From Candidatus Nealsonbacteria bacterium DGGOD1a (GTDB taxonomy: Bacteria; Patescibacteriota; Minisyncoccia; Minisyncoccales; UBA5738), in contig CP092821.1 of NCBI GenBank assembly GCA_022530585.1, positions 326,222 through 390,221 on the forward strand: a stretch of 64,000 nucleotides of DNA, given 5' to 3'. Both the position numbers and the translations under genes were made by a program. Shown in pieces: positions 45,407 through 63,542 of the stretch (its first letter is position 1; the number at the start of each line of letters is the position of its first letter). The notes beneath the pieces were generated by a model. The model ran no database searches. It worked only from the letters and a program-made list of their open reading frames with translations, and was not told the DNA's origin.

Positions 45407-45419
45407 AAAATCTTTAACG

Positions 45420-45439
45420 GCGCCCGAAAGGGCGCTTTT
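45420..45439 (+). terminator. Intrinsic terminator after ferredoxin
   Basis: GCGCCC-GAAA-GGGCGCTTTT. Confidence 0.75.
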
Positions 45440-45703
45440 GCGTTATACATATTGCATTTTTTTGCAGATATGCGACAATTAACGAGTCGCATCAATGATA
45501 GCGTTTATCGGTAACGGCTAAGCCTTTTTTGTTAAAACCCGAGTTTTCGGAGGTTTTAGGTAAAAAGGGGCGATGGTTCCAATTTGCTTAACCGTTTGGT
45601 AAGCGTTATCATTGGGCGACAACCATCGTCCCTTTTTGGCAAAATAAAATCATAATCATTATATAATTTTTGCTATCGCAAAAAATACATAATCAAAAAA
45701 CTT

Positions 45704-48700
45704 ATGGCAAAAGAAAAAGCAAATAAAAATTTTAATGACTTTAAAAATATTTTTCCACTATCAAAAACTCGAAAGTTTTCGTTAATTCCTGTTTTAAACA
45801 TAGAGCAAGAAAGGCGAATATGCATAGAAAAAGGATATTCAAATAAAGATGAAATTACAAGACAAAACAGAGTTGAAAAATTTTTTAAAGATAATAATCA
45901 AGATATTTTTAATGTTGATATTGAAAGAAAAAAACGATATCAAGCGCTTAAGTATTATTTAACTGAATTGCATAAGCTCTTTATTAAGGATTCTTTGGAA
46001 ATGATTAAAAGAAACAACGATATTAATTTTTCTAATCTTTTTGAATTATATATAGGATATGAAGCTTCTAATAATGAAAAAAAAAGAAAGGTTATAGGAA
46101 AAATTAACAATGAAAAGGTTAGATTGGCTAAATATTTTGGAGATAAAGAAGGCAAGGGCGGGGTATTCCAAAAAATAGCGAAAAGATATTACGAATATCT
46201 GGAAAAAAATTTAAGGAATAATGAAAAAATTAAGGGTGGCGATGATAAGCAGAAATTTGCCGATGGGACAAAAAATATTTTGATCTCCCAAAATGTTTTG
46301 ATGATTTTAAGTAAAAAGATAAATGATGGCAGTATTCGGGAAAAAAAAGAGAAAAATCAAGGTAAAGAAAATGAATATGCAATTAAATTCAAAACAAAAG
46401 AAAATAAAGATCAGGAAACAAATTTAGTTGAATATTTTGGTGGATGGTCTACATATTTTAAGAACTTTAATGAGATCAGGGGCAATCTTTATAAAGATGA
46501 AGGAAGAAGACAAGGTGATGAGGGGGATGATGAAACGGGAGAGAAGCTTGTAAAGGCAAATTCAGGACAATTAACAACGCGGATTTTAGACGAAAATTTC
46601 GAGATTTTTGTAAAAAACGCATTTTTGGCAGAAAAAAATAAAATTGACTTAGGTTTAACGGATTATCAAAAGAAGAATGTGATTGCTAATCATAATATTT
46701 TTGAGCCCGATTATTATGCAAATTGCTTATTGCAAGCTGACATAAACACCTATAACGCGGCCATTGCTGAACTTAATAAACTGTTTAACGAGAAAAAAGG
46801 AAAAAAGAAGATTGATTATCTTGAACCATTGTATAAGCAGTTATTATTATCCGATGGCCTTGAGGAGTTTGAAAATGGATATATCAATGAATTTAACAAC
46901 GATTCTGATCTAATTGAGGGATTGGAAAAATTTTATAGGCACGCTCGCGAAAAATTATCCATAGTTGGTAATTTCTTAAAGGATGGTCTAATTAACGGTG
47001 ATTTAGATTCCATACTGCTTAAGGAAAATCAAACGCATTATTATTGTAATATTTTTTTTGGATCGTGGTCGTATATAAGAGATTTGTATTATGAACAAAA
47101 CGGTATTGGTATAAAAAATAGACCCGATAAGAAAAGTGAATTAAAAGATAAGGATGGAAGAACAAAAATAGAGATTTCTTTGGCAGAGATAAAATCAATT
47201 TTAGATGGAATTAGCAAGGAGAGATTTCAAGAAGACATTAAAAATGCAATAGAGAACGCGAAACAGAGGTCAAGATCCGTATTTGATCTTCTAGGTGTTC
47301 ACGGCAGCGAAAAAATTTATAAAGAAGATAAAAGCAATTTTGAAAACTTCGTTTTGTTTTTTAAATTTTATTTTGATTCATTGTTGAATGGTAGAAATTT
47401 GTTGACTGAAAAAGAAAAGAAAGATAAGGAAAAAATTACCCAAATAAAATCATTCTTGCAAAAGTCAAAAACCGAAGGAGAGCGAGTAGATGAATTATTG
47501 ATGTCAAAATTTTCAGAAGCAAATTATTTGGCAAGCATTAACGCAAGTATTAATAAAAAACAAGAGGAATTCGAAAACGAATTTAAAGATTTAAGGCAAT
47601 CAATCAATCTAAAAAAGGGATTATCTCGAAGGAAAGATTTTGAATGCAAACAGGCGATAAACGATTATTGCGTTAGAATTTCCGATATTAACGGTTTTTT
47701 TGCTTTGTTTTCAATTCCAGAGGGTATTGTGGCTGACGGCGATAACGGAATAATCCAAAAGTTTAAAGATAAAAACGAAATAAATGCGCTTTTTGGTGCA
47801 ATCAGAAATTATATTACAAAGAAAGATGCCGGAAATGAAAAAATCAAGGTAACATTCGACAATCCAACATTTTTGGGTGGTTGGGCATATAAAACCACTG
47901 ATTATTGTTGCCGAATTTTGAAGAAACAAGATAATTATTATTTATTAATCATTGGCAAAGAAAAAAGTAAAAATAAAAACGATGTTAGCAAGCAAATAAA
48001 TGTTAATAGTCTCACCGGTTATCAAATGATGGATTATTATCAGCAAAAAGGCCAGACTATTTTTGGATCTGTTTATACGGGAAAATTTGATTCAAAATAT
48101 GGAGATGACAGGACGAAATTGAAGAATTCTGAATTTATAAAAAGAATAGAGCAAATTATTGATGGTCTTAATAGAGAATTTTGTAATGTGCAAAAAGTTA
48201 AAATGCATTTGGAAAGTTTAAAAGAAATGATTAGGGTTGGAAAGTTTAATTTTGGTATAACCGCATCTGATTTTGGCAAAGCTTTTCTTGGGAAAACTGA
48301 AAAATATTACCATCAATATAAAAATAAGAAAGGTATTCTTAATAAAGAAGATGTAATTATCAGTATTTTAAAAGAATTGTTTGGTAGTGAGATGTTTGAT
48401 TATGGACATGAAAAAGATTATTTAGTCAATCGGGTAAAAGAAATAATGAAAGAAGATGCCCCCAAAACGAGTTTTTTAGGGTCTGATTTATTGGCATATG
48501 AAGTTACTAAACTTGAGCCTTATTATTATAAAAATAACTTTAGGGAGATGGATTTCAAAAAAGACGGGATAGATGAAAAATTATTAGATAAAGAATTATT
48601 TATTTTCCAAATTTATTGCAAAGATTTTTCTTTGAAGAGGGGAAGTATAATTCCGAATCCAAAGAAAGATTTAAACACGCTTGAATTTGAGGAACTTTTC

Positions 48701-50176
48701 TCGATAGAGAATAGAGAAAAACCATTGTTTAGATTAGCTGGACAAGCCGAAGTTTTTTTCTATCCTCAAAAAGAAAGCTATAAGGTTGAGCGGTGGTCAA
48801 AAGATGACTTAAAAAATCCGAAAACCGATAAAATTCCGTATAAAAAAAGGCGATACGCGGAAAATCAAATTATTTTTCATATCCCAATAGTTGTGAATAA
48901 TATCAGCAATGGCGGCAATGTTGATAGGAAAATACACGAGTATATTCAACAAAGAAACGATGTAAAGATGTTGGGCATTGATCGTGGAGAAAGGGAGCTT
49001 GCTTATTGTTGCTTGCTTGATGGGAAAGGAGCGATTTGCGGCGATGTGAAATCAATGAATATTGTTGGCTCTAATATCAAAAATGGGATAAAACAGCCGA
49101 TAAACTACCAAAAGAAATTAGATATTAGAGAAAAGGAAAGATTAATGGCCAGACGATCTTGGACCAAGATTGAAAGCATCAAAGATATTAAGCGCGGCTA
49201 TGACGCGAATTTAATGCACGAAATTACGACGCTTATGGCTCAAGAGAACGCGCTGATTTGTTTGGAAGAATTAAATCGTGGATTTAAAAAAGATAGAACA
49301 AGGATCGAAAAGAGTATATACCAGCAATTTGAAAACGATTTAGTTAACAAATTAAATTATTTGGTGATTGAAAAATCACCTCAAGGAGTTAGAAACGCTT
49401 TGCAACTAACACCTCCAAATAGAGCTCAAAAGACTTGGGGTAATCAAATGGGCGCAATTTTTTATACAGATGCAAGATATACATCAAAAACTTGCCCTAA
49501 TTGTGGTTTTAGGCATAGAAGCGTTGGAGGACTGAAAACATCCCAAGAAATAAAGAATAAAATTGCCGCAAAAGAGCTTAGAATATCCTACGATAAAAAA
49601 TACGATAGATTTAGGATTGAGTATCATTGGAATTATGAATTTAAACAGAACAGTAAGCAATGCGAATTTGCAAGCAAAGATTTATACAATGGAGAAATGG
49701 AATATATTTTTTCAGATGTGAACCGAAGTCATTGGAATAATAATGATTTAAAGGATATTTTTAAAGATTACCTCATTGAGAATGAAGATTTGTTTTTGCT
49801 TGTAAAGAATGAGCCGAAATTCCGTTATGTTGATTTTGGTAAAGTATTTGTTAGTCTTACATGGATAAGGCATTCAGTTAAAGAGGGCGATCAAGAATAT
49901 GATGAAATTTCTTGTCCGAAATGCCATTTTTGGACAAGATCTCCAAAAGTTCAAAAAATTAAAGATGGAGATGCAAACGGGGCTTACAATATCGCCAGAA
50001 AAGGATTGATCATTTTGGATAAAATCAGGAGCGAAAAATTAAGAAATAAAATGAATACAAAAAACGGGATTAAGAGCAAGGGCTTAAAAATAAATCTTAA
50101 AGAATGGGATGAAGCAACTTATTCTCAATGGGATAGGAAAGATTGGGGCGAGAGCGATAATAAAAGAGGTTTATAA
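45704..50176 (+). CDS. cas12a: Type V-A CRISPR effector Cas12a (Cpf1), 1490 aa
   Basis: Family-typical motifs FPLSKTRKFSLIP, WSTYFKNFNEIRGNLY, FDNPTFLGGW, LFIFQIYCKDFS, IIFHIPI. Split RuvC: GIDRGE (D1093), ICLEELNRGFK (E1188), DGDANGAYNIARKG (D1423). No HNH. cas4-cas1-cas2 and a Cas12a-type repeat array lie downstream. Confidence 0.95.
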   Translation: MAKEKANKNFNDFKNIFPLSKTRKFSLIPVLNIEQERRICIEKGYSNKDEITRQNRVEKFFKDNNQDIFNVDIERKKRYQALKYYLTELHKLFIKDSLEMIKRNNDINFSNLFELYIGYEASNNEKKRKVIGKINNEKVRLAKYFGDKEGKGGVFQKIAKRYYEYLEKNLRNNEKIKGGDDKQKFADGTKNILISQNVLMILSKKINDGSIREKKEKNQGKENEYAIKFKTKENKDQETNLVEYFGGWSTYFKNFNEIRGNLYKDEGRRQGDEGDDETGEKLVKANSGQLTTRILDENFEIFVKNAFLAEKNKIDLGLTDYQKKNVIANHNIFEPDYYANCLLQADINTYNAAIAELNKLFNEKKGKKKIDYLEPLYKQLLLSDGLEEFENGYINEFNNDSDLIEGLEKFYRHAREKLSIVGNFLKDGLINGDLDSILLKENQTHYYCNIFFGSWSYIRDLYYEQNGIGIKNRPDKKSELKDKDGRTKIEISLAEIKSILDGISKERFQEDIKNAIENAKQRSRSVFDLLGVHGSEKIYKEDKSNFENFVLFFKFYFDSLLNGRNLLTEKEKKDKEKITQIKSFLQKSKTEGERVDELLMSKFSEANYLASINASINKKQEEFENEFKDLRQSINLKKGLSRRKDFECKQAINDYCVRISDINGFFALFSIPEGIVADGDNGIIQKFKDKNEINALFGAIRNYITKKDAGNEKIKVTFDNPTFLGGWAYKTTDYCCRILKKQDNYYLLIIGKEKSKNKNDVSKQINVNSLTGYQMMDYYQQKGQTIFGSVYTGKFDSKYGDDRTKLKNSEFIKRIEQIIDGLNREFCNVQKVKMHLESLKEMIRVGKFNFGITASDFGKAFLGKTEKYYHQYKNKKGILNKEDVIISILKELFGSEMFDYGHEKDYLVNRVKEIMKEDAPKTSFLGSDLLAYEVTKLEPYYYKNNFREMDFKKDGIDEKLLDKELFIFQIYCKDFSLKRGSIIPNPKKDLNTLEFEELFSIENREKPLFRLAGQAEVFFYPQKESYKVERWSKDDLKNPKTDKIPYKKRRYAENQIIFHIPIVVNNISNGGNVDRKIHEYIQQRNDVKMLGIDRGERELAYCCLLDGKGAICGDVKSMNIVGSNIKNGIKQPINYQKKLDIREKERLMARRSWTKIESIKDIKRGYDANLMHEITTLMAQENALICLEELNRGFKKDRTRIEKSIYQQFENDLVNKLNYLVIEKSPQGVRNALQLTPPNRAQKTWGNQMGAIFYTDARYTSKTCPNCGFRHRSVGGLKTSQEIKNKIAAKELRISYDKKYDRFRIEYHWNYEFKQNSKQCEFASKDLYNGEMEYIFSDVNRSHWNNNDLKDIFKDYLIENEDLFLLVKNEPKFRYVDFGKVFVSLTWIRHSVKEGDQEYDEISCPKCHFWTRSPKVQKIKDGDANGAYNIARKGLIILDKIRSEKLRNKMNTKNGIKSKGLKINLKEWDEATYSQWDRKDWGESDNKRGL

Positions 50177-50183
50177 AAATTCA

Positions 50184-50723
50184 ATGGAGGATTATATTCA
50201 GATTTCCAAGATAAATGATTTTGTGTTTTGTCCGTATTCGATTTATTTGCATTCGGTATACGAGAATTTCAACGCCAAAACCTATCATCGGACGGCGCAG
50301 ACCGTGGGCAAGATCGCGCACAGGCCGGTTGATGGCGGAACATACACGACCAGCGCGCGAGTGTTGCAGGGAATGGAAGTTTGTTGCGAGCGGCTGGGGA
50401 TTATGGGTAAAATCGACACATTTGATGCCGAAAGCGGATTGCTGGTGGAGCGCAAATACAAGATCAAAAAGATTTTTGACGGTTATCGCTACCAGCTCTA
50501 CGCGCAAATGTTTTGTTTGCGGGAAATGGGTTATGAAGTGAAATCGCTGGCGATCCAATCGCTGGCGGATAACAAGCGGTATAAAATTTCTTTGCCGGAC
50601 GCACAAGAAACCGCGAAGTTTGAAGAATTGATTGAAGCAATGAAGAATTACCGGCCGAGTCCGCCGGAGAATAAAAATCCGGCAAAATGCGCGCAATGCG
50701 TTTATAAGCCGCTGTGCCATTAA
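50184..50723 (+). CDS. cas4: Cas4 (RecB-like nuclease with 4-Cys Fe-S cluster)
   Basis: N-terminal FCPYS Cys, GKIDTF..LVERKYK (D..ExK), QLYAQM, C-terminal CAQCVYKPLC. ATG is 8 nt after the cas12a stop. Confidence 0.9.
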   Translation: MEDYIQISKINDFVFCPYSIYLHSVYENFNAKTYHRTAQTVGKIAHRPVDGGTYTTSARVLQGMEVCCERLGIMGKIDTFDAESGLLVERKYKIKKIFDGYRYQLYAQMFCLREMGYEVKSLAIQSLADNKRYKISLPDAQETAKFEELIEAMKNYRPSPPENKNPAKCAQCVYKPLCH

Positions 50724-50737
50724 AGAAATTTTCGCGA

Positions 50738-50773
50738 GGGACTAACCCTCGTGATTACTCGAGGGATAGACCC
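50738..50773. repeat. Family A hairpin module inserted between cas4 and cas1
   Basis: GGGACTAACCCTCGTGATTACTCGAGGGATAGACCC is about 85% identical by eye to 8273-8306. Confidence 0.8.
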
Positions 50774-50783
50774 CCGCGAAAAT

Positions 50784-51734
50784 ATGTTGAGTTTGCCTGA
50801 TTTCAAAGAAAAACAATTGTTGTTTGTGAGCGCCAAGAATGCCGAGATTGAAAAGATCAAGTTTTTGAATGACAATATCTGCTTGTCAAAGGACGGAAAA
50901 ATCGTCAACCGGATTTCGTGCCACAAGGTTTTCGCGCTGTTTTTGATCGGCGATTGTTCGCTTACCAGCGTGTTGGTCCGCAATTGCGCCGATTACGGCG
51001 TGTCGATTTTTCTTTTAAAAAATAATTTCTTGAATTATGCGCGGTTGTTGGCGCAAGCGGACGGGAATTATTTGTTGCGCGAAAGGCAATACGCGGCGAC
51101 CGAAGAGCAAGAGCTGGCGGCGGCAAAAATTTTGGTGGCGAATAAAATTTCAAACCAGATTTGCTTGCTGGAAAGTTCGGACGGTAAAGACGCGGCGTTA
51201 TCTTTGGAAAAAATAAAGGCAAAAATCAAAAACGCGCGAAACGGCAAGGATTTGCTTGGATTGGAAGGCGCGGCGGGCAAATTTTTCTTTCAAAGTTATT
51301 TCAAAAATTTGGAATGGAAACGGCGTTTGCCGCGGGCAAAGATTGATATTCCGAATTATTTGATGGATATGGGCTATACGATGCTGTTTAATTTTGTTGA
51401 GGCAATGCTGGGGATATACGGGTTTGATGTCTATCGCGGGTTTTACCACAAGCTGTTTTTTCAGCGCAAATCGCTGGCGTGCGATTTGATGGAGCCGTTT
51501 CGGTGCGTGATTGATAAGCAGATCATGAAATCCCATAATTTGGGGCAGATAAAGGCCAATGATTTCAAATTGAGCAAAGGCGTCTATGGCTTGGGATTTG
51601 AAGAGCAGAAGAAATACGCGGAGATTTTCGCGCAGGCGATTATGGATCGCAGAGAAGACATTTTTTGCTACGCGCGCGATTATTACTATTTTACGATTAA
51701 CGGCGCGGAATTTCCGGCATTTAAGATGAAATGA
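50784..51734 (+). CDS. cas1: Cas1 integrase
   Basis: LLGLEGAAGKFFF (Glu), GFYH (His), LACDLMEPFR (Asp/Glu). The ATG at 50784 is preferred over GTG 50751, which lies inside the palindromic element. Confidence 0.9.
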   Translation: MLSLPDFKEKQLLFVSAKNAEIEKIKFLNDNICLSKDGKIVNRISCHKVFALFLIGDCSLTSVLVRNCADYGVSIFLLKNNFLNYARLLAQADGNYLLRERQYAATEEQELAAAKILVANKISNQICLLESSDGKDAALSLEKIKAKIKNARNGKDLLGLEGAAGKFFFQSYFKNLEWKRRLPRAKIDIPNYLMDMGYTMLFNFVEAMLGIYGFDVYRGFYHKLFFQRKSLACDLMEPFRCVIDKQIMKSHNLGQIKANDFKLSKGVYGLGFEEQKKYAEIFAQAIMDRREDIFCYARDYYYFTINGAEFPAFKMK

Positions 51735-51735
51735 T

Positions 51736-52014
51736 ATGTTTATAGTTTCTTATGATTTCGAAGATACGCGCCGCCGGACGAAATTCTCGAATCTTTTGAA
51801 AAAATACGGCCGGCGATTGCAATACTCGGTTTTTGAGATAAAAAACAGCCAGCGGATATTGGATAACATCCAAAAAGAGATTGATATGAAATATAAGCCG
51901 TACTTTACGAAAAACGACAGTATTGTTATAATTTATGTGTGCGAGGCGTGCAAAGCCAAAGTCAAGCGATATGGTTATGCCGCCAACGAAGAAAAGGAAG
52001 TGGTGTTCTTCTAA
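51736..52014 (+). CDS. cas2: Cas2
   Basis: 92 aa. MFIVSYDFEDTRRRTKFSNLLKKYGRRLQYSVFE is the canonical Cas2 N-terminus. Starts 1 nt after the cas1 stop. Confidence 0.9.
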   Translation: MFIVSYDFEDTRRRTKFSNLLKKYGRRLQYSVFEIKNSQRILDNIQKEIDMKYKPYFTKNDSIVIIYVCEACKAKVKRYGYAANEEKEVVFF

Positions 52015-52201
52015 AATTGAATAGATACAAAACAAAAAGTAGCAAATTGGTGGAAATTGCAGTGTATCTATTAGAAATCTAGCTTTTTGAGGTTATTAAA
52101 CCTCGGTCTTTATGGATTTTCCAACTTTAACCGGCTTTAAGTCGTTAATCAAATTTTATCGGTTAATCGCATCTTTCAAGCCGGTTAAAGCTAATCCAGC
52201 T
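52015..52201 (+). promoter_or_regulatory. CRISPR leader
   Basis: 187-nt AT-rich non-coding stretch between cas2 and repeat 1. Contains hairpin GAGGTT-ATTA-AACCTC and an 11-bp inverted repeat, TTAACCGGCTT (52127-52137) with AAGCCGGTTAA (52178-52188), ending 13 nt before repeat 1. Confidence 0.65.
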
Positions 52202-55200
52202 CTCTAATAGGCATATTCAATTTCTACTTTTGTAGATAACAATGTGAAATTGATTTATTTGAACTCTAATAGGCATATTCAATTTCTACTTTTGTAGATT
52301 GACGGGTAAGTTCGCCATTCCTTTAATACTCTAATAGGCATATTCAATTTCTACTTTTGTAGATCTCCAACGCTTCACCTCCGAAATAAGCTCTAATAGG
52401 CATATTCAATTTCTACTTTTGTAGATTCCGCGCAATAATTTAGCTTCCAAATCTCTAATAGGCATATTCAATTTCTACTTTTGTAGATGTGGGAAATAGG
52501 GTTCTGCTGCCGCGGGACTCTAATAGGCATATTCAATTTCTACTTTTGTAGATATTACACAGCACGAAGATAAACACGCCTCTAATAGGCATATTCAATT
52601 TCTACTTTTGTAGATAAAAGTCAAGTATCTGTTTTTTATTTTCTCTAATAGGCATATTCAATTTCTACTTTTGTAGATGAAAGGGTTGAGCGATGATGGA
52701 TCAACTCTAATAGGCATATTCAATTTCTACTTTTGTAGATCTATGAATTGAAATACTTGTGGGGACTCTAATAGGCATATTCAATTTCTACTTTTGTAGA
52801 TGGAAAGCGCGATGATGTGGAACATACTCTAATAGGCATATTCAATTTCTACTTTTGTAGATTCCTCCGGTGTCAACTCTTTGTCCCATCTCTAATAGGC
52901 ATATTCAATTTCTACTTTTGTAGATATGAAAAATTTGCGTGGAGTGCGAGGACTCTAATAGGCATATTCAATTTCTACTTTTGTAGATGGTTAACGCTTT
53001 TTTGCCGCGGAACCTCTAATAGGCATATTCAATTTCTACTTTTGTAGATCTTCTCAACGGTAACGGCAGTTTCTACTCTAATAGGCATATTCAATTTCTA
53101 CTTTTGTAGATACGACGCCATCGGATTTATTCATAACTCTAATAGGCATATTCAATTTCTACTTTTGTAGATATGAACAGGTTGAAGCCTGTCCCTCGCT
53201 CTAATAGGCATATTCAATTTCTACTTTTGTAGATATGCCGACAATCAGATTCCGTTTGAGCTCTAATAGGCATATTCAATTTCTACTTTTGTAGATGAAA
53301 TCGGGTAACTCAACAAAAGCGTCTCTAATAGGCATATTCAATTTCTACTTTTGTAGATTTATTGATTTTGTTTTAGCGTGGATTCTCTAATAGGCATATT
53401 CAATTTCTACTTTTGTAGATTCAAGAGCCATCTTGTAATTATTTTTTACTCTAATAGGCATATTCAATTTCTACTTTTGTAGATGTAAAAAATTGTGCCA
53501 ATGGTGGCGTCTCTAATAGGCATATTCAATTTCTACTTTTGTAGATGTTGTCGGAGCTTTCCTGCCTTCTGACTCTAATAGGCATATTCAATTTCTACTT
53601 TTGTAGATCCAAGCGGCGAGCGCACAAGACCTTGAGTCTCTAATAGGCATATTCAATTTCTACTTTTGTAGATAAAGAGCGCACAGCGATAAGATGTTGT
53701 CTCTAATAGGCATATTCAATTTCTACTTTTGTAGATCTCAAAAAGCGGGGGATGTCGTTCAACTCTAATAGGCATATTCAATTTCTACTTTTGTAGATAA
53801 CACTAATCCCGTGCTTACCGGAGCGACTCTAATAGGCATATTCAATTTCTACTTTTGTAGATATCTGATAATTTGTTCATTTTGTTTTGACTCTAATAGG
53901 CATATTCAATTTCTACTTTTGTAGATAATACGAAGCCGCGATTGCCCCGATACTCTAATAGGCATATTCAATTTCTACTTTTGTAGATTCTATTATTGGA
54001 GGGGTGGTTGATAACTCTAATAGGCATATTCAATTTCTACTTTTGTAGATTCGCTGGTTTAGTTAGCCAGAGATTGACTCTAATAGGCATATTCAATTTC
54101 TACTTTTGTAGATTGCAATAATCGTTATTAACAATTATTCTCTAATAGGCATATTCAATTTCTACTTTTGTAGATTCTATGTGTGCGAACGGGGTATTGT
54201 CTCTAATAGGCATATTCAATTTCTACTTTTGTAGATTAAAAATCTTCTTCTTGTTCCGCTTTCTCTCTAATAGGCATATTCAATTTCTACTTTTGTAGAT
54301 GAATCCCGCTGTTCTTGATTTCTGTGTCTCTAATAGGCATATTCAATTTCTACTTTTGTAGATTTGGCCAATACAACTGATGAATGGTTTCTCTAATAGG
54401 CATATTCAATTTCTACTTTTGTAGATTTTGCCCCGCCGGATACCACCCATTTCCTCTAATAGGCATATTCAATTTCTACTTTTGTAGATTGTACAAACCA
54501 AATAAAGAGGAAATAACTCTAATAGGCATATTCAATTTCTACTTTTGTAGATTTCGTGTGTCGCGAATTTCGAATGTTCTCTAATAGGCATATTCAATTT
54601 CTACTTTTGTAGATATTGACCCGCACTTTTCTTACGGCGAGCTCTAATAGGCATATTCAATTTCTACTTTTGTAGATTCTCCCAAGAGCAAATAATAATG
54701 ATAACTCTAATAGGCATATTCAATTTCTACTTTTGTAGATCGAAGCCTTCCGAAAATTCTATTGGACTCTAATAGGCATATTCAATTTCTACTTTTGTAG
54801 ATTCGCCGATACAATACCACCATATTTTCTCTAATAGGCATATTCAATTTCTACTTTTGTAGATCTTAATTCGCTTACTCTTGCCATTACTCTAATAGGC
54901 ATATTCAATTTCTACTTTTGTAGATTCAAAACAGAATAAAAAAATAATCAACTCTAATAGGCATATTCAATTTCTACTTTTGTAGATGGCGACAGCATAA
55001 TGGCCTTCACGCTCTCTAATAGGCATATTCAATTTCTACTTTTGTAGATACTCCGGCAACCCTATGCCCCGAATTCTCTAATAGGCATATTCAATTTCTA
55101 CTTTTGTAGATGGCGGGGATGGCGGTTATGTGTGCGCTCTAATAGGCATATTCAATTTCTACTTTTGTAGATTTATTCTTTCCGGCGATTGCCACCAACT

Positions 55201-55295
55201 CTAATAGGCATATTCAATTTCTACTTTTGTAGATAAAAAAGTATTCACTTTGTCCTGGGCTCTAATAGGCATATTCAATTTCTACTTTTGTAGAT
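52202..55295 (+). CRISPR. Type V-A CRISPR array: 50 identical 36-nt repeats, 49 spacers of 25-29 nt
   Basis: Repeat is CTCTAATAGGCATATTCAATTTCTACTTTTGTAGAT, counted line by line. The 3' end forms the UCUAC-UUUU-GUAGA crRNA hairpin. Same strand as the cas genes. Confidence 0.98.
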
Positions 55296-55841: not shown

Positions 55842-58800
55842 ATGAAAAAATTTATGAACAATATTTCAAAAACGATATTTGGAAAAGCGGGGAGATCGAT
55901 TCGCAAAGCGACGGTTGTGTTTTTAACATTTGCAACCATTGCGCAGCCCTTGTCGCCGCTGATTGTTTTGGCCGAGGAAACGGCTATCAGCCCGGAATCA
56001 ATTCCGGCCGCGGCTAATGCCGTGGAAGTAATTGAAAACGCGCTCGTTTTGGCAACTCCCGAAATCCCCGGCAACGCAGACTCGAGCGAAAAATCGGAAA
56101 CAAAACCCGCAATCAAAACCGCGCCGGATTCAGACAATCAAACACCCCGGATAATCATCAATTCAATCTCGGATACTTCGTCGTTTTCCGAAACTTTGGA
56201 ATCAAATTCAAGCGAACAATCCCCCAAAACTAAAGTCGCGGCGGGCGCCGGAACAGAAATGAGCGCGATGAACGCCAGCGCCGCGGGAATAAATTCGGTA
56301 AACGGGTTATCGGTTTCGGTATCAAATCCCGCGACAACAAAAAACCAACCCGACATCGACCAGAATACCGGCGCTTTAACATATAGCTTTCCCATTACAG
56401 TGCCGCCGGGCCGGAGCGGAATGCAACCCAACCTTGCCTTAACCTATAATAGTTCCAATAACGAACAAGGGAGCATTTTCGGCTACGGCTGGTCAATCAA
56501 TATTCCCTACATTCAGCGGCTCAACAAATTTGGCCTTAATGAAATGTATCATAACACCGGCAGCTCGGAATTTTTTTACTCGTCGATAGACGGCGAGATT
56601 ACCAGCGCGCTTGATAATTCCAATTTATACTTTGCAAGAACCGAAAATGGAGACTTCAATAAATATCTGTTAATGGACAACTATTGGATAATGCACGGGA
56701 AGGACGGTACGCAGTATAAATTCGGCGATTACGACGCCTCCCGGCAATACGATCCCGGCAATACCGATCATATCTACAAGTGGATGCTGAAAGAAATCCG
56801 CGACACAAACAATAACTTCATAACCTTTTCATATTATAAAGACGCCAACCAAATTTACCCGGAATCAATCAAATACACGGGCAACGGATCCACTGATGGA
56901 ATTTTTGAAGTTTCTTTCATGAAATCTTGGCGTCCAGATAACGGGATTGTTTCATATGATGCCGGATTTCCCGTTACTTCGAATTACTACATTACTGAAA
57001 TTGACACTAAGGTAAACGGCAATTGGGCGATGAAATACTTTCTCAATTACAATCTTAATCCCACCAACACCGGAGCGCTTTTGAATTCCATTGGAACGCA
57101 GGCGCAAGCGGCCGACGGCGTAATAACCGTGCTGCCGCTCGAACAATTCAGCTACCAAAACAACGCCCCCGGCTGGGCGCAAACCGCAACAACAACTCTG
57201 CCGTCTATCAGCTACAAACCGGGACCCGGATTTTCCTTTGCCACCGGCGACCATCAGCAGTTCATCGATCTGAACGGCGACGGTTTGCCCGAATTCATTG
57301 ATTTCGCTTTTTTATATCACGGGGATGGAATCATGACTTCCGATTCCTGTGACTCGCAATACGGTTCCGGCCAAGGATATTCACTTTTAAACGCCGTGGC
57401 CGCCGTGAACCGAAGAAATTACTGGGACAGCGGCGACACCACATGGAAACTTCCACAGGATCAAAACAGATTTTTTGAACGCGCCTGCCTTGACAGCGAT
57501 ATGAATGTGCAATTTGCCGATTTAAACGGCGACAATTTGCCCGACCTTATAAAAAGTTATATTGATTACAAATATTCATCGCCGGAAACTTTGCGAAGCG
57601 AGGTTTATTTGAACAATGGCAATGGCTGGACATTAAGCCCGAATTGGAAACTACCGTCATATACGCTGGGAAGCCAAGGTTATGCGACCACGCAAATTAT
57701 TTTTGGCGATGTCAACGGCGACAATTTGCCCGATTTGATTGAGACCGCCGCATGCTCGGGCTACCATTCCGGATCAAAATGCAGCGTAAACAATTCTCTC
57801 GTTTATCTTAATAATAATGGCTTGGGCTGGGGCCGGAACTACCAATGGGCATTCGGCTCCGCGCCCGGATTCGCATCTTTCCAATTTGTTGATCTGAACG
57901 GCGATGGCGCGCTCGAATTGGTCAGCAGCGCCTATGGAGACGCCGGCGCGCAAATCAAAGCCTATCGACCCGGATCAGATTGGTACCAAGGATGGGCGGA
58001 ATTTAATTCATACTCTATAAATTACGGTAAAGTTAACACCCCATATAGCGGCAGCATCCTTCCGCGCACGACCTTCGCGGATTGGAATAATGACAATCGT
58101 TTTGACGCAGTGGCGTATTTCATTAATAATAATCCTGCCAACAATGTAATCAACGGATACAAAAACGGCATATCGAATTTATCGCCGGCTTCCTTAACTT
58201 TACCGATCAATAATAGCGTGTGCGGCGCCAACAATTCATTCTGCGTCCCGCAATTTTCCGATACCAATGGCGACGGCTTGCAAGATCTTGTTCAAATAAA
58301 CAGCAATGTGACCACCCAAGGAATTGATTTCCGCGGCGCGGTTTTCGCCAACATTGCCCAAAAACAAGATTTGTTAAGCAAGGTATCTTATCCGCAGGGA
58401 GGGGAGACTGCAATCGCTTACAAAACTGCGACGCAATACGCGAACAACAAATCGCCTTACCAGCTGTTTACGGTTTCGCAAATCACAAACAATGATAACG
58501 CCGGCAATTTCGATAGCCACACTTATGATTATTCGGGGGCGTCGTATTATTTTGATTCGCCGATGAACCGCAAGTTTGCCGGATTTAAGATAATTACTCA
58601 AACCGATGCGGCCGGAAATGTTGCGAAAACCTATTTTAACACCGGAAACGGCACCGATTCAGCCAACGGCCAATACGCCGACAGCTATTACAAAATTGGT
58701 AAAGTTTATCGTACCGAGCAATACGACGGCGCGGGAAATCTTTACGCGGCAACAATCAATAAATGGGACTCGTCGCAACGAAATATTAATTCAAATTTTG

Positions 58801-61800
58801 TGTATCCGGCACAAACCATAGAGCAAAGTTACGATGGCCAGGCAACCCACCGCGACAAAGCGCAAAGCTTTTTATACGACAACCAAAGCGGCAATTTGAT
58901 CCAAAAAACCAATCATGGCGAGGTTATTGCAAACCAAGACGGATCTTTTGCCGGAATTGACAGCGCGCAATATACCGCCAGCTATTCTTATGGCCTGTTA
59001 AGAGGCTATTCCACCACTTCATATGTAACGAGCATCCAAATTCGGGACCAAAATTCAAACAAAATAAGCGAATCAAAATTCTATTATGATTGGTCGTCCT
59101 ATAACTATATTATTGCCGGCAACTTGACAAAGGAAGAAAATTGGATTTCAGGTTCAACCTACGCCACATCGTATAAATACTATAATAATTACGGCTTGGT
59201 TGGCCAGTCGGTCGATCCCAACGGCAACTCCACAAATTTTAACTACGACAGTTATAATTTATATCCGGCGGAAGCGATCAACGCGTTCGGCCAAATCACT
59301 AGATATGCCTATGATTATCCATCGGGCCAGGTAACGCAAACTACGGACGCGAACAACTTGCTTTCAAATACGACTTACGACGGTTTTGGCCGGGTCCTGC
59401 GATACTTGGAGTATCCATCGATACAAAGCGCCAAATCAACATTTGTCTACACCGATGTGATTGGAAATTTCAGCGTACAGGAAACCGCCTATCTTAATTC
59501 GCAAACCGCGGTAACCGGTTACAGTTATTACGATGGCTTGGGGCGTTTGATCCAAACCAAAAAATCCGCTCGAAAAGGTAATTTTGAAACGAAAGATTTT
59601 GCTTATGACAATCGCGGCAACTTGCAAAAAGAATCATTGCCGTATTTCACCGCCAACAGCGCGAAAACTAGCCCCACAACAAATTCACTGCTTTACACAA
59701 CCTATTCCTACGACGCGCTGGGCCGGAAAACCAGTGTTGCGAACGCGCTGGGAACCACAACTTACAGTTACAAAAATTGGCAGACGACAATCACCGACGC
59801 CAATTCAAATTCCAAAGATTATTCTTATGACGCATATGGCAATTTAGCAAAAGTTGTGGAACACGACGATTCAAAAGACTACGCTACCGCCTATTCTTAT
59901 GACGGACTGGGTAATTTAACCAATATCACCGACGCATCGGGCAATGTGCGGAATTTCCATTACAATGGTTTGGGCCGCGCTGTAAACATCGAGGATTTGC
60001 ATGCCCCCACAGCCACTGTTTTTGGCTATCGCGGATACCTTTACGATAACGCCGGTAATTTGCTTAAGTTGGTCGATGCAAAAAATCGAACGACCGCTTT
60101 CGAATATGATTCGATCAACCGCCAAAAATCGGAAAGCATTGACGGCTCAACGACAAAAACATTCACCTATGACAATTGCGCCAATGGCGTTGGGCGTTTG
60201 TGTCAAGTTGTTATGTCCGGTGAAACCGAGAATTTTGAGTATTCCATCTTGGGCAATCTCGCCAAAGATACGAAAGTTCGCGATAACCAAACTTTTACCA
60301 CCCAATATACCTACGATTACCAAGGAAATCCGCTCACAATCACCAATCCCGACGGTTCAATCGCAAAATTCAGTTACAACGCCGCAGGCCTGACCGAAAG
60401 CGTTTCACGCCAGGAACCAGCGGTGGCGGCGGTTGGCGTAGTGAGCAGTTTTGATTATTCGCCGGCGCGCCAAGTAAGCGCGCTAAATTACGGCTCCGGC
60501 ATCGCGACCGTTAATACCTTTGATCCAAACCAGCTATATCGCTTAACGCGCAAAATTTCCGGCGTCGGCGCAACCAACTTGCAGGATCTTGCCTATAACT
60601 ATGATGCGGTTGGCAACATCATTAAGATAACGGATAGCTCCGCAACCGCGACAAAGAAAACCGTTGCCTATGGATATGATAAACTTTACCGATTAACATC
60701 GGTTGCGGCCGCAAACACCGCCAACAACCAGAACTACACGCAGAATTTCACCTATGATCCGCTGGGAAATATGTTAAGTCAAAAACTCAATGACCAAACA
60801 ATGAGTTATAGCTACCAGCCAAGCTCGACTCTGGCCAACCCGGACGCGGTTACCTCAATTACAACCAATAATCCTTTGGCGGAGCCAATCATTTCCACTT
60901 TCACCGCCACTCCGGCAACGATCAACGCCGGCGCCACCACGACCTTGGCTTGGACATTATCCGGCGGCGCGCCGACCACGCTGACGATCACTCCAAGCGT
61001 GGGCAGTGTGCTGAACACTCTTTCCAAAGTCGTTACCGTTTCGGCAACCACAACCTACACGCTCACCGCGACCAACGCGGTGGGCACCACTGCCAAAACC
61101 GTGACCGTGAACGCCAAACCGACCGCGCCGGTGATCAAAACTTTCACCGCCGCTCCGGCAACGATCAACGCCGGCGCCACCACGACCTTGGCCTGGACCT
61201 TGGACGGCGGGACTCCCACATCTTTAACAATTAATAATGGCGTGGGTTCGGTGCTGGGTGCGACATCCAAAACGGTATCGCCGGTAACCACCGCTACCTA
61301 CACCTTGACCGCGGCCAATGCCGCCGGGACAGTGACCAAAACGGTTAGCGTCACGGTTATTCCAACTCCGGTGATTTCCAGTTTTACGGCCGCGCCCGCG
61401 GCCATTACCAAGGGGAAATCAGCAACTTTGTCGTGGACGCTTACAGGCGGAACCGCCACCTCGCTTTCAATCAATAATGGCGTCGGGTCAGTTCTTGGAA
61501 AAACATCAGTCACGGTTAAGCCGTCATTGACCACAACCTACACGCTCACGGCGGTTGGTTCGGCGGGAACCGCAACCGCAACTGCAACCGTAACCGTGGT
61601 TGCGGCTCCAACTATTTCCAGCTTTACCGCAAGTTCGGTGAACATTAACCAGGGCGGCTCGGTAACGCTTTCCTGGAAATTAGGCGGCGGCGCTCCCGAT
61701 ACTTTGGCAATTGACAATAATGTGGGTTCGGTTGTCGGTAAAACATCGATTGTCGTGGCGCCAACGCAAACTACAACCTACAAACTGACATCCAAAAACA

Positions 61801-63542
61801 TTGCCGGAACCGCGACTAAAACCGTGAAAGTTACTGTAAAGATTCCCGCTCCGACAATTACCGGTTTCACGGCAACATCGGTCGTTATTAACAAAGGACA
61901 ATCGACAACTTTGTCGTGGACGCTGGGAGGTTCGACTCCAACCACATTAAGCATAGATCAAGGCGTTGGTTCGGTGCTTGGCGCAACCTCAAAAATCGTG
62001 GCGCCCACGAAAACCACCACCTATACGCTGACATCTAAAAATAGCGCCGGGACCGCGACCAAAAAAATTACGATTACGGTTAGGCGAGTTTTTCTGCTTA
62101 ATGATTTGACAAGTAAAATTGTTCGCGCCGCAATCGGTTCGGCGGCAAAGATTTTCGCGGTCATCGCCGATACATTCTCAATTCCCACCGCCTATGCCGC
62201 CGGCGCCACCACCACGGCCAATTATCAATATGACGCCAATGGCAATCTGTTAACCGACGGCAAAACCACTTACACCTACGATTACCAAAACCGCATAGTT
62301 TCAACCGCAACCGGTATAACCGGCGCGAGCACGGTTTCCGCTTACTCGTATGATTTCCAAGGCCAAAGGGATAAATCAGTTGTTACCATCACCACTACCG
62401 ACGCGGCCACGGGGAATGTTACAATAAAGGTAATCACAACCTACACGCCGACAAGCTATTACAGTTCGTCGGTTACAACCACGACCGTAAAAAGTAAAAC
62501 CGGAACGGTTTTGTCCGCCACGACCGCGCCCGCGGAAATCACCAAACACATCTTTGCCAACGGCCGGATGTTGGCCACGGTGAGGGGGACGGGTGCCAGC
62601 GCCAAGGCATATGTAACTCTCACCGACAGCCTAAACGGTTCCACGGTGGTATTGGATTCCAACAATGCCATTGTTGAAACCACGGATTACTATCCCTTTG
62701 GCGCGATCCGGTTTGACAATCAAGTAAATTCGTACAATGAAAAGCGCAAATACATCGGTCAGGAGTACGATGCCGAAACCAGCTTGTCATACCTCAACGC
62801 CCGGTATTACAATGGAACCATCGGCAGATTCATAACCCAAGACCCGGTCTTCTGGGGAAATCAGAATTTGAGCGATCCGCAGAGCTTGAATGCGTATTCG
62901 TACGCTAACAACAATCCGATTACCTTGAGCGACCCGAGCGGGTTGATGACACTCGCAGAGATACAAACTCAGATAGACTCAATCAAATCGCAAATTGGGA
63001 CGCTCACGAAAGCGGTTGGCGATTATACGGCACAAGCGGGCAAAGCGGCGGTAAATGGCGTTAAATCGGCGGCGACTACTGCTTACAACGCTACCACAGG
63101 TACTGTCGCAAAAGCTAAAAATTATGTTTCCAATTCTGACCCGGACAAGAATATTTTTGCATCCCGTAAAAATCCCAACGGTACGGATGGTTTATCGAAT
63201 TTTGACGCTTTTTTGACATTCGGGATGCCCGGTGTTGGCGGTATGATGGTTGGCGCTGGGAAAGGAATTGGCAAAACCGCAATCGTAGTTAAAAAAGCGT
63301 TAGCTGATGAAAATAAATTTACGCACCTATTTAACAATACCAAGCATGGTTTGGCACCATTGGTGGAACAATTTGGTAGTCAAAAAAATGTAATTCAAGA
63401 GGTGGCAAAAAACATTGTAGGTAAATATCAAGGTAGTGGCGTAAACGAAATAGTTGTAAAAATTGGTGATACCATGGTAACGGTGAGAGGCCAAATTGTT
63501 GATGGGATTGAACGTATCGGCACTTTCTTTGTTAAAAATTAA
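55842..63542 (+). CDS. Giant SpvB/FG-GAP/RHS-repeat polymorphic toxin (2566 aa)
   Basis: N-terminal anchor. SpvB-like GALTYSFPITVPPGRSGMQPNLALTYNS..GYGWS. Five DLNGDGLPE-type FG-GAP/VCBS repeats. Dozens of YD repeats (YDGLGRL, YDALGRK, YDAYGNL..). RHS core end YLNARYYNGTIGRFITQDP..NPITLSDPSGL, followed by a 198-aa variable tail. Confidence 0.9.
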   Translation: MKKFMNNISKTIFGKAGRSIRKATVVFLTFATIAQPLSPLIVLAEETAISPESIPAAANAVEVIENALVLATPEIPGNADSSEKSETKPAIKTAPDSDNQTPRIIINSISDTSSFSETLESNSSEQSPKTKVAAGAGTEMSAMNASAAGINSVNGLSVSVSNPATTKNQPDIDQNTGALTYSFPITVPPGRSGMQPNLALTYNSSNNEQGSIFGYGWSINIPYIQRLNKFGLNEMYHNTGSSEFFYSSIDGEITSALDNSNLYFARTENGDFNKYLLMDNYWIMHGKDGTQYKFGDYDASRQYDPGNTDHIYKWMLKEIRDTNNNFITFSYYKDANQIYPESIKYTGNGSTDGIFEVSFMKSWRPDNGIVSYDAGFPVTSNYYITEIDTKVNGNWAMKYFLNYNLNPTNTGALLNSIGTQAQAADGVITVLPLEQFSYQNNAPGWAQTATTTLPSISYKPGPGFSFATGDHQQFIDLNGDGLPEFIDFAFLYHGDGIMTSDSCDSQYGSGQGYSLLNAVAAVNRRNYWDSGDTTWKLPQDQNRFFERACLDSDMNVQFADLNGDNLPDLIKSYIDYKYSSPETLRSEVYLNNGNGWTLSPNWKLPSYTLGSQGYATTQIIFGDVNGDNLPDLIETAACSGYHSGSKCSVNNSLVYLNNNGLGWGRNYQWAFGSAPGFASFQFVDLNGDGALELVSSAYGDAGAQIKAYRPGSDWYQGWAEFNSYSINYGKVNTPYSGSILPRTTFADWNNDNRFDAVAYFINNNPANNVINGYKNGISNLSPASLTLPINNSVCGANNSFCVPQFSDTNGDGLQDLVQINSNVTTQGIDFRGAVFANIAQKQDLLSKVSYPQGGETAIAYKTATQYANNKSPYQLFTVSQITNNDNAGNFDSHTYDYSGASYYFDSPMNRKFAGFKIITQTDAAGNVAKTYFNTGNGTDSANGQYADSYYKIGKVYRTEQYDGAGNLYAATINKWDSSQRNINSNFVYPAQTIEQSYDGQATHRDKAQSFLYDNQSGNLIQKTNHGEVIANQDGSFAGIDSAQYTASYSYGLLRGYSTTSYVTSIQIRDQNSNKISESKFYYDWSSYNYIIAGNLTKEENWISGSTYATSYKYYNNYGLVGQSVDPNGNSTNFNYDSYNLYPAEAINAFGQITRYAYDYPSGQVTQTTDANNLLSNTTYDGFGRVLRYLEYPSIQSAKSTFVYTDVIGNFSVQETAYLNSQTAVTGYSYYDGLGRLIQTKKSARKGNFETKDFAYDNRGNLQKESLPYFTANSAKTSPTTNSLLYTTYSYDALGRKTSVANALGTTTYSYKNWQTTITDANSNSKDYSYDAYGNLAKVVEHDDSKDYATAYSYDGLGNLTNITDASGNVRNFHYNGLGRAVNIEDLHAPTATVFGYRGYLYDNAGNLLKLVDAKNRTTAFEYDSINRQKSESIDGSTTKTFTYDNCANGVGRLCQVVMSGETENFEYSILGNLAKDTKVRDNQTFTTQYTYDYQGNPLTITNPDGSIAKFSYNAAGLTESVSRQEPAVAAVGVVSSFDYSPARQVSALNYGSGIATVNTFDPNQLYRLTRKISGVGATNLQDLAYNYDAVGNIIKITDSSATATKKTVAYGYDKLYRLTSVAAANTANNQNYTQNFTYDPLGNMLSQKLNDQTMSYSYQPSSTLANPDAVTSITTNNPLAEPIISTFTATPATINAGATTTLAWTLSGGAPTTLTITPSVGSVLNTLSKVVTVSATTTYTLTATNAVGTTAKTVTVNAKPTAPVIKTFTAAPATINAGATTTLAWTLDGGTPTSLTINNGVGSVLGATSKTVSPVTTATYTLTAANAAGTVTKTVSVTVIPTPVISSFTAAPAAITKGKSATLSWTLTGGTATSLSINNGVGSVLGKTSVTVKPSLTTTYTLTAVGSAGTATATATVTVVAAPTISSFTASSVNINQGGSVTLSWKLGGGAPDTLAIDNNVGSVVGKTSIVVAPTQTTTYKLTSKNIAGTATKTVKVTVKIPAPTITGFTATSVVINKGQSTTLSWTLGGSTPTTLSIDQGVGSVLGATSKIVAPTKTTTYTLTSKNSAGTATKKITITVRRVFLLNDLTSKIVRAAIGSAAKIFAVIADTFSIPTAYAAGATTTANYQYDANGNLLTDGKTTYTYDYQNRIVSTATGITGASTVSAYSYDFQGQRDKSVVTITTTDAATGNVTIKVITTYTPTSYYSSSVTTTTVKSKTGTVLSATTAPAEITKHIFANGRMLATVRGTGASAKAYVTLTDSLNGSTVVLDSNNAIVETTDYYPFGAIRFDNQVNSYNEKRKYIGQEYDAETSLSYLNARYYNGTIGRFITQDPVFWGNQNLSDPQSLNAYSYANNNPITLSDPSGLMTLAEIQTQIDSIKSQIGTLTKAVGDYTAQAGKAAVNGVKSAATTAYNATTGTVAKAKNYVSNSDPDKNIFASRKNPNGTDGLSNFDAFLTFGMPGVGGMMVGAGKGIGKTAIVVKKALADENKFTHLFNNTKHGLAPLVEQFGSQKNVIQEVAKNIVGKYQGSGVNEIVVKIGDTMVTVRGQIVDGIERIGTFFVKN
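60881..62087 (+). repeat. Five tandem ~80-aa (~240-nt) Ig-like beta-sandwich repeats inside the RHS gene
   Basis: Each unit reads P.I..FTA.P..I..G...TL.W.L.GG....L.I...VGSV.G..S..V.P...TTY.LT..N..GT.TKTV.VTV. Units 1 and 2 share a near-identical ~55-nt stretch (60901-60955 vs 61145-61199). Confidence 0.85.
62946..63539 (+). other. C-terminal variable toxin module of the RHS protein (family unassigned)
   Basis: Begins right after the DPSGL (62931-62945) RHS core boundary. 198 aa; no motif recognised. Confidence 0.6.

Follow-up and report, generated by a model that had tools for sequence, protein, structure and literature searches.

What kind of effector heads the CRISPR-Cas locus of Candidatus Nealsonbacteria bacterium DGGOD1a, and how did it come to stand before the adaptation genes that follow it? 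DGGOD1a is a Parcubacteria/candidate phyla radiation (CPR) episymbiont of methanogens, and we analyzed its locus within a 64-kb stretch of DNA, hereafter the window. With high confidence, this is a complete type V-A CRISPR-Cas locus for adaptive immunity, carried on the chromosome, and its architecture is ordinary for that type. Its effector adds an uncharacterized new member to the Cas12a family and does not define a system of a new kind. CRISPR is rare in Parcubacteria according to the genome paper of Chen et al. (bioRxiv 10.1101/2022.04.20.488981), which typed the locus of DGGOD1a as V, with Cas12a, cas4/1/2 and 49 spacers. Because the same locus was thus published for the same genome, the locus as observed is already known and in itself adds nothing new. 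The interest is evolutionary, in the turnover of effectors while the repeat and adaptation module stay fixed, and biochemical, in a Cas12a that has a zinc ribbon and no processing histidine.

Cas12a membership of the effector and architecture of the locus

By profile, alignment and predicted structure, the 1490-aa effector is a genuine Cas12a with putative WED, REC1/REC2, PI, RuvC, bridge-helix and Nuc elements. The protein scored 365.8 bits against TIGR04330 (cas_Cpf1; cut-off 300), up to 727 bits against the PADLOC Cas12a models, and E 1.7e-61 against Pfam RuvC_1. In phmmer searches of the Protein Data Bank (PDB), Cas12a chains alone reached meaningful E values, 4e-73 with the full protein and 4e-65 to 1.7e-53 with the C-terminal half; the remainder at E <= 10 consisted of six chance-level rows (E 0.3-2.5). 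Two AlphaFold2 fragments were compared with known structures by Foldseek. For residues 690 to 1490 (predicted local distance difference test [pLDDT] 77.7, predicted template modeling score [pTM] 0.69), the top 50 matches were all Cas12a (E 3e-35 to 3e-27), and for residues 1 to 760 (pLDDT 79.0, pTM 0.71), 38 of the 38 matches below 1e-3 were Cas12a. The predicted structure matches the bilobed Cas12a fold, with a REC lobe and the WED, PI, RuvC, bridge helix and Nuc elements. The initial annotation, made from the DNA letters, had called the system type V-A and had named a Cas12a profile search and structure prediction as checks; TIGR04330, PADLOC, the PDB searches, both AlphaFold fragments and the missing anti-repeat described below all agree with that call.

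Sequence motifs of the family were readily located. The N-terminal part contains FPLSKTRKFSLIP (aa 17-29) and WSTYFKNFNEIRGNLY (aa 248-263), followed by FDNPTFLGGW (aa 718-727) and LFIFQIYCKDFS (aa 965-976). The RuvC residues D1093, E1188 and D1423, together with structural residues, are unvarying across 19 homologues (alignment A1). The bridge helix begins ~40 aa past RuvC-I, is helical in the model (model residues 446-463) and has W1153 as an invariant column, and R1389 of the Nuc domain corresponds to R1226 of AsCas12a. Among the lysines that contact the protospacer-adjacent motif (PAM), alignment succeeded only for AsCas12a K548, whose counterpart is K730; the sequence of the PI domain has diverged too far to be aligned. 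There is no HNH domain, the Pfam scan of the effector giving RuvC_1, REC1 and TNB matches only. The 1490-aa open reading frame (ORF), these motifs, the three catalytic residues at nt 48980, 49265 and 49970, and the freedom from HNH had all been read in the initial annotation and were verified in the sequence.

The protein is 100% identical to UMX48270.1 ("hypothetical protein L7H18_01865"), encoded on a 1,159,797-bp contig of DGGOD1a. This exact match rules out the Parcubacteria Cpf1 of 2015 (PbCpf1, GW2011_GWC2_44_17), which the initial annotation had raised as possibly the same locus. GenBank labels the window Cas12a and several of its clade relatives "hypothetical protein," though the window protein passes the NCBIfam Cas12a cut-off.

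The adaptation genes, leader and array follow on the same strand (Table 1). The ATG of cas4 lies 8 nt past the cas12a stop; a mechanical ORF list puts an overlapping upstream start at 50109, and the relatives, whose Cas4 is also 179 aa long, favor 50184. We doubt the GTG start of the cas1 ORF: the NCBI record and every relative begin at the ATG at 50784, for a product of 316 aa. The repeat, CTCTAATAGGCATATTCAATTTCTACTTTTGTAGAT, occurs in exactly 50 perfect copies compared to 0 expected in shuffled sequence, and its minimum free energy fold is a 5-bp UCUAC/GUAGA hairpin at the 3' end, on the cas strand, with unexceptional energy (z = -1.6). Repeats at the trailer end of an array are usually degenerate; the 50th, terminal repeat of this array (55260-55295) is the same as the other 49. 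The spacing of cas4, the order of cas1 and cas2, the 187-nt leader, the 50 identical repeats and the 3' hairpin are thus as first annotated, and every feature on which the description of a complete type V-A locus relied is present in the sequence.

Systems that depend on a trans-activating CRISPR RNA (tracrRNA), such as types II, V-B and V-E, were rejected, as a blastn-short search of the array-masked 64-kb window found no anti-repeat above chance. The best candidate, 15 nt with 1 mismatch at 46366-46380 within cas12a, has E = 0.3. An Rfam scan of the window gave no tracrRNA-type match and, indeed, no family match at all. The initial annotation had likewise seen no convincing tracrRNA, with a borderline anti-repeat only.

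The closest relatives of the effector form a "long" clade of 1415-1497 aa from Patescibacteria and Roizmanbacteria metagenomes, most of them annotated as hypothetical. In homology searches, its members are mostly 49-73% identical to the window effector over the full length (30-46% in the case of P0027-P0029 and P0031); beyond the clade, canonical Cas12a proteins are 30-39% identical over the C-terminal third only. In a search of family representatives (1015 clusters), long-clade clusters scored 359-697 bits, followed by a gap to <=268 bits. As far as these searches indicate, the clade is small and CPR-restricted. Compared to the 1261-aa ReChb, the window effector has 229 additional aa, with ~90 in REC1, ~70 in PI and the others in mid-REC and in a C-terminal tail that is conserved; alignment to ReChb revealed no discrete novel domain in them. 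The clade as a whole exceeds the best-matching solved Cas12a chains (1261 aa) by ~230 aa. The tail (aa 1466-1490, nt 50099-50173; KEWDE..Y.QWD.KDW) is clade-specific and lies past the end of canonical Cas12a; within it, W1468 is invariant and D1469 nearly so. All long-clade loci examined that include enough downstream DNA have the order cas12a-cas4-cas1-cas2-array, with repeats that end in (A/G)ATTTCTACTTTTGTAGAT and the handle (A/G)AUUUCUACUUUUGUAGAU. In a distant relative of the P0031 branch, an extra 1189-aa ORF with a GLDRGE motif stands between cas12a and cas4 (L006:14268-17837). This ORF had no Pfam, NCBIfam or PDB sequence match, and it could encode another effector in tandem, of the Cas12a', V-L, a2 or a3 kind.

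Candidate effector replacement at a fixed repeat

Loci that share the exact 36-nt repeat were collected from public metagenomes (15 stretches) and species-representative genomes (3), giving loci L007-L024. Some of the 18 stretches are re-samplings, L014 and L019 being from one contig and L023 from the contig of L016. Sources include Patescibacteria bacterium RA.bin35, Candidatus Paceibacterota SO_2016_LW1_25 and a metagenome-assembled genome (MAG) labeled Candidatus Saccharibacteria. Where these loci contain flanking cas genes, Cas4 is 74-78%, Cas2 74-98% and Cas1 62-82% identical to the window protein, the Cas1 range narrowing to 78-82% when L020 and L022 are set aside. The effectors found before cas4 are of several types: that of the window and L001 (73% identical to each other), that of L013 and L023 (88% to each other), and those of L010, L014, L018 and L022. 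Identity between the types is 27-35%, which places at least six Cas12a lineages in one slot. The L010, L013, L014 and L018 effectors passed TIGR04330, and L022 was compared by blastp only.

In blastn comparisons between pairs of loci with different effectors, the aligned segments of at least 100 nt were the flanks, with 75-92% identity; the exception is L013/L014, where ~130 nt are additionally common across the effector 5' end. In three of the four pairs, the downstream aligned flank starts a few nt from the stop codon of the effector; the fourth is L018/L010, where it starts within the 3' end of the effector gene, ~150 nt in. When related loci are aligned to the window (67-82% nt identity), the match crosses the leader up to the base preceding repeat 1, and the leader segments of these loci are 78-92% identical to one another. 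The conserved blocks of the window are located at 45452-45639 and from 50175 onward. They flank a variable cassette of ~45640-50175, which therefore coincides with the low-GC segment. A separate feature of this region is a ~290-aa ORF with a Bro-N domain between the upstream block and the effector in L013 (337-1215), with an equivalent in L018; it is absent in the window and in L014.

The window effector is 52-55% identical to the effectors of loci whose Cas1 is merely 43-49% identical to that of the window. This incongruence excludes divergence in place and indicates recombinational replacement of the effector. Thus, from the sequence comparisons, the window cas12a was most likely installed by cassette replacement. 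Base composition is consistent with a foreign gene, the GC content at third codon positions (GC3) being 0.274 in cas12a versus 0.572 in cas4, 0.576 in cas1, 0.516 in cas2 and 0.53-0.58 in the flanking genes. Two compositional points, however, count against reading this as a sign of recent arrival. GC3 is 0.26-0.35 in every Cas12a examined in related loci, whatever the host GC (0.36-0.46), and low GC3 of cas12a alone could reflect a gene-specific bias and not recency. Because low GC3 is common to every Cas12a examined, the case for replacement rests mainly on the phylogenetic incongruence.

Taken together, we lean toward the view that the V-A locus of this Nealsonbacteria/Paceibacterota lineage has served as a docking site, in which the adaptation module, leader and invariant repeat were kept and the ~4.5-kb cas12a was repeatedly swapped for deep-branching lineages, all able to work with the universal Cas12a handle AAUUUCUACUUUUGUAGAU and the spacer memory already in place, the window effector being a recent cassette. 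Escape from anti-CRISPR proteins is a plausible driver of such swapping. Loci with the same repeat and different effectors amount to a clean natural experiment on effector interchangeability, and the set bears on the drivers of effector turnover, such as anti-CRISPR pressure.

Spacers, processing site and zinc ribbon

On the pattern of established Cas12a biology, the array would be transcribed from the leader side, and Cas12a would bind each repeat hairpin to yield CRISPR RNAs (crRNAs) that are ~42-46 nt long and begin with a handle of 19-20 nt. The Cas12a-crRNA complex would read a 5' PAM, probably T-rich, on double-stranded DNA and form an R-loop, the single RuvC site would cut both DNA strands, presumably in a staggered manner, and Cas4-Cas1-Cas2 would place new PAM-selected spacers beside the leader. 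Spacer content bears on whether such a system is in use. Readable arrays with this repeat number 16, one in the window and 15 in the 18 public stretches, some of the latter re-sampled from one contig. A set of 192 unique spacers came from 15 spacer-bearing arrays (that of the window and those of 14 metagenome loci), none common to any two arrays. The three MAG loci re-sample two of these arrays and one more array with spacers already present in the set; of the spacers in these loci, 35 of 35, 12 of 13 and 2 of 2 belong to the 192. That spacers are unshared between arrays with the same repeat points to ongoing acquisition in the lineage and lends indirect support to the proposal, made in the initial annotation, that the locus is intact and probably active.

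Several results speak against a working system of this kind. No protospacer was found for the 192 spacers in the array-masked window, the fetched loci and 50,697 phage records (a plasmid collection was not searched); in the phage records, the 49 window spacers and 143 others gave low-complexity matches at E = 7 only. Eight exact scans of IMG/VR with 22-23-nt spacer sequences gave zero matches. Promoter and terminator scans were uninformative, with 44 promoter-like sites compared to 40 expected. The processing site raises further points. By HMMER alignment, residues H843, K852 and K869 of FnCas12a map between AEVFF (aa 1015) and KKRRY (aa 1047-1051) of the window effector. There is no histidine for Fn H843 in aa 1015-1051 (nt 48746-48856) and none conserved in the clade, and the Fn K852 counterpart is ambiguous, with an alignment gap at that column. 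The processing loop (model residues 335-360) is disordered in the model, with pLDDT below 50, and reading the processing site off the AlphaFold model was dropped for this reason. Because no protospacer was found, we can do no more than infer DNA targeting and the PAM, and because the H843 counterpart is missing and K852 falls in a gap, we infer self-processing of the pre-crRNA without residue-by-residue support.

These observations could mean that the locus is whole in sequence and impaired in function, with a recently imported, His-less effector whose pre-crRNA is matured by a host RNase or whose system is silent. A processing loop free of histidine, with none conserved in the clade, a compositionally foreign cas12a and spacers that are all orphans are in keeping with this. 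However, the His-less clade extends to at least 15 homologues, and every clade locus examined that continues past the effector pairs cas12a with cas4-cas1-cas2 and an array with a conserved handle, which argues for a working partnership. The counterpart of K869 and the basic KKRR patch are conserved, an alignable histidine is also missing in many other representatives of the Cas12a family, the genes are all full length and the repeats all identical. We therefore consider an impaired locus very unlikely.

The zinc-binding cysteines of the effector raise another alternative, because zinc ribbons have been described as hallmarks of the RNA-triggered Cas12a2 and Cas12a3. The effector might then be an RNA-triggered abortive-infection nuclease of this kind and not a DNA-cutting Cas12a. 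Such systems have a zinc ribbon as well as the repeat of Cas12a and cas4-1-2, and the window effector has conserved cysteines at C1264/C1267 and C1404/C1407; a "Roizmanbacteria Cas12a3" has been reported, a Roizmanbacteria protein also belongs to the clade of the window effector, and a DNA protospacer has so far not been found. The architecture argues otherwise. In Cas12a2, by definition, a large insertion domain takes the place of the bridge helix and Nuc gives way to a compact zinc finger; the cysteines of SuCas12a2 (C1170, C1173, C1188 and C1191) all lie inside 22 residues. The window effector has a normal bridge helix with the invariant Trp (aa 1135-1153) and no replacing insertion, and its two knuckles are 136 aa apart; the Nuc domain between them is of the Cas12a type and has the conserved Arg. 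The length of Cas12a3 proteins is 1099-1226 aa and their identity to Cas12a 10-20%, and they have a zinc ribbon and an insertion or tRNA-loading domain, whereas the window protein has 1490 aa and is 33-39% identical to canonical Cas12a across the C-terminal half. No Cas12a2 or Cas12a3 chain was among the PDB matches at E <= 10 or the Foldseek top 50; their presence in the PDB copies is unconfirmed, and the architectural case is independent of which chains those copies contain.

The zinc ribbon was also rejected as a marker of RNA targeting on the evidence of the family itself, in addition to the Cas12a-like bridge helix and Nuc. Of 194 family members that were fetched, 54 have a CPxCG knuckle; ~28 of these are of ordinary length and come from the 146 new proteins of the representative search. 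Because these ordinary-length Cas12a proteins carry it, the knuckle is not diagnostic of RNA targeting, and we regard a Cas12a2- or Cas12a3-type effector as highly improbable. A sizeable minority of Cas12a proteins has retained the zinc ribbon, which is an ancestral trait. About one-quarter of the fetched family representatives keep the zinc-ribbon cysteines around the Nuc domain, and the crystallized, Cys-less enzymes are therefore unrepresentative of the family.

Equally improbable is a main role in degrading host (methanogen) or environmental DNA for nucleotide scavenging instead of antiviral defense, on which the authors of the genome paper speculated for an organism that, they report, cannot make nucleotides (bioRxiv 10.1101/2022.04.20.488981). 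That no viral target has been found is in keeping with such a role. However, the authors' own spacer searches matched nothing but the array itself, consortium metagenome included, the spacers of related arrays are wholly different, a pattern expected in an arms race with viruses but not where the target is a fixed host, and the locus is indistinguishable from defense-type V-A systems.

Surroundings and comparison with known systems

The coordinates of the features are given in Table 1. Ahead of the conserved upstream block, at 45419-45436, the ferredoxin gene before it has a hairpin that resembles a terminator. Directly past the array, at 55842-63542, the window encodes a 2566-aa Tc-toxin/RHS-type protein (SpvB, FG-GAP, TcdB_mid/N and RHS repeats), a very large product for a CPR genome of 1.16 Mb. 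A tRNA scan of the whole 64-kb window found zero tRNA genes.

Table 1. Coordinates of the locus features and of the effector residues discussed in the text
Feature	Coordinates	Strand	Description
Conserved upstream block	45452..45639	+	Left edge of replaceable cassette; 81-85% nt identity to L013 and L018 5' ends, which have unrelated Cas12a genes
cas12a promoter region	45640..45703	+	Between conserved upstream block and cas12a start
cas12a (Cpf1)	45704..50176	+	1490 aa; CPR "long" clade; UMX48270.1; GC 0.307, GC3 0.274
K1047	48842..48844	+	Counterpart of FnCas12a K869, clearly conserved; HMMER alignment to FnCas12a numbering
RuvC-I catalytic D1093	48980..48982	+	In GIDRGE (aa 1091-1096); invariant in alignment A1
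Bridge helix	49106..49162	+	aa 1135-1153, last residue W1153; aligns to MbCas12a and ReChb bridge helix
RuvC-II catalytic E1188	49265..49267	+	In ICLEELN (aa 1185-1191); alignment A1
First zinc knuckle	49493..49504	+	C1264-P-N-C1267, Nuc-domain entry; weak Cas12f1-like_TNB Pfam match, alignment
Nuc-domain R1389	49868..49870	+	Invariant column in alignment A1
Second zinc knuckle	49913..49924	+	C1404-P-K-C1407, 136 aa beyond the first; alignment
RuvC-III catalytic D1423	49970..49972	+	In DGDANGAYNIARKG (aa 1421-1434); alignment A1
cas4	50184..50723	+	179 aa, type V "PREFRAN"; TIGR04328 229.6 bits (cut-off 70); GC3 0.572
cas1	50751..51734	+	GTG 50751 ORF, likely start ATG 50784 (316 aa); type V "PREFRAN"; TIGR04329 320.6 bits (cut-off 300); GC3 0.576
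cas2	51736..52014	+	92 aa; TIGR01573 52.5 bits (cut-off 24.5), PF09827; GC3 0.516
Leader	52015..52201	+	187 nt
CRISPR array	52202..55295	+	50 identical 36-nt repeats, 49 unique spacers of 25-29 nt; handle AAUUUCUACUUUUGUAGAU

The effector represents an uncharacterized CPR clade; it has the architecture of Cas12a, its zinc ribbon is intact and the processing histidine is missing. It therefore offers a test, set up by nature, of whether Cas12a can do with or without these elements. DGGOD1a is among the few CPR bacteria in stable laboratory co-culture, so that crRNA expression and spacer uptake are directly measurable.

Compared to the canonical V-A systems of FnCas12a, LbCas12a, AsCas12a and MbCas12a, the window locus has the same order (cas12a-cas4-cas1-cas2-leader-array) and a 36-nt repeat that ends in the same AAUUUCUACUUUUGUAGAU, and is likewise free of a tracrRNA; its effector shares the RuvC D/E/D residues, the bridge-helix Trp, the Nuc Arg and the overall predicted fold. 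The effector differs in being ~190-260 aa longer, with the surplus in REC1, PI and the C-terminal tail, and in that nothing in it corresponds to Fn H843, the processing histidine. It also keeps a CxxC...CxxC zinc ribbon where the crystallized enzymes have DPxTG and SPV, and its identity to canonical Cas12a is 33-39% at best, in the C-terminal half, and much lower in REC. SuCas12a2 and BaCas12a3 resemble the window system in their V-A-like repeats, association with cas4-1-2, RuvC domain and zinc-binding cysteines. They differ from it in that their bridge helix and Nuc are replaced, RNA is targeted and their action is collateral, whereas both elements are retained in the window protein, in which no specific similarity to SuCas12a2 or BaCas12a3 was detectable.

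The nearest relatives are those of the long clade, for example Candidatus Roizmanbacteria PIP62078.1 (UniRef A0A2H0BYR2), which share the length class, the zinc knuckles, the His-less loop and the W1468-D1469 tail. They belong to other host lineages than the window, which is from Nealsonbacteria, and the adaptation module of the window has not co-diverged with its effector. In this respect the window lineage resembles the modular evolution ("module shuffling") of adaptation and effector modules described by Koonin and Makarova (PMC6452270), the Cas1 and effector phylogenies being incongruent in both. Here, however, the exchange would have taken place on a very fine scale, with an identical repeat and with breakpoints at or near the ends of the effector ORF.

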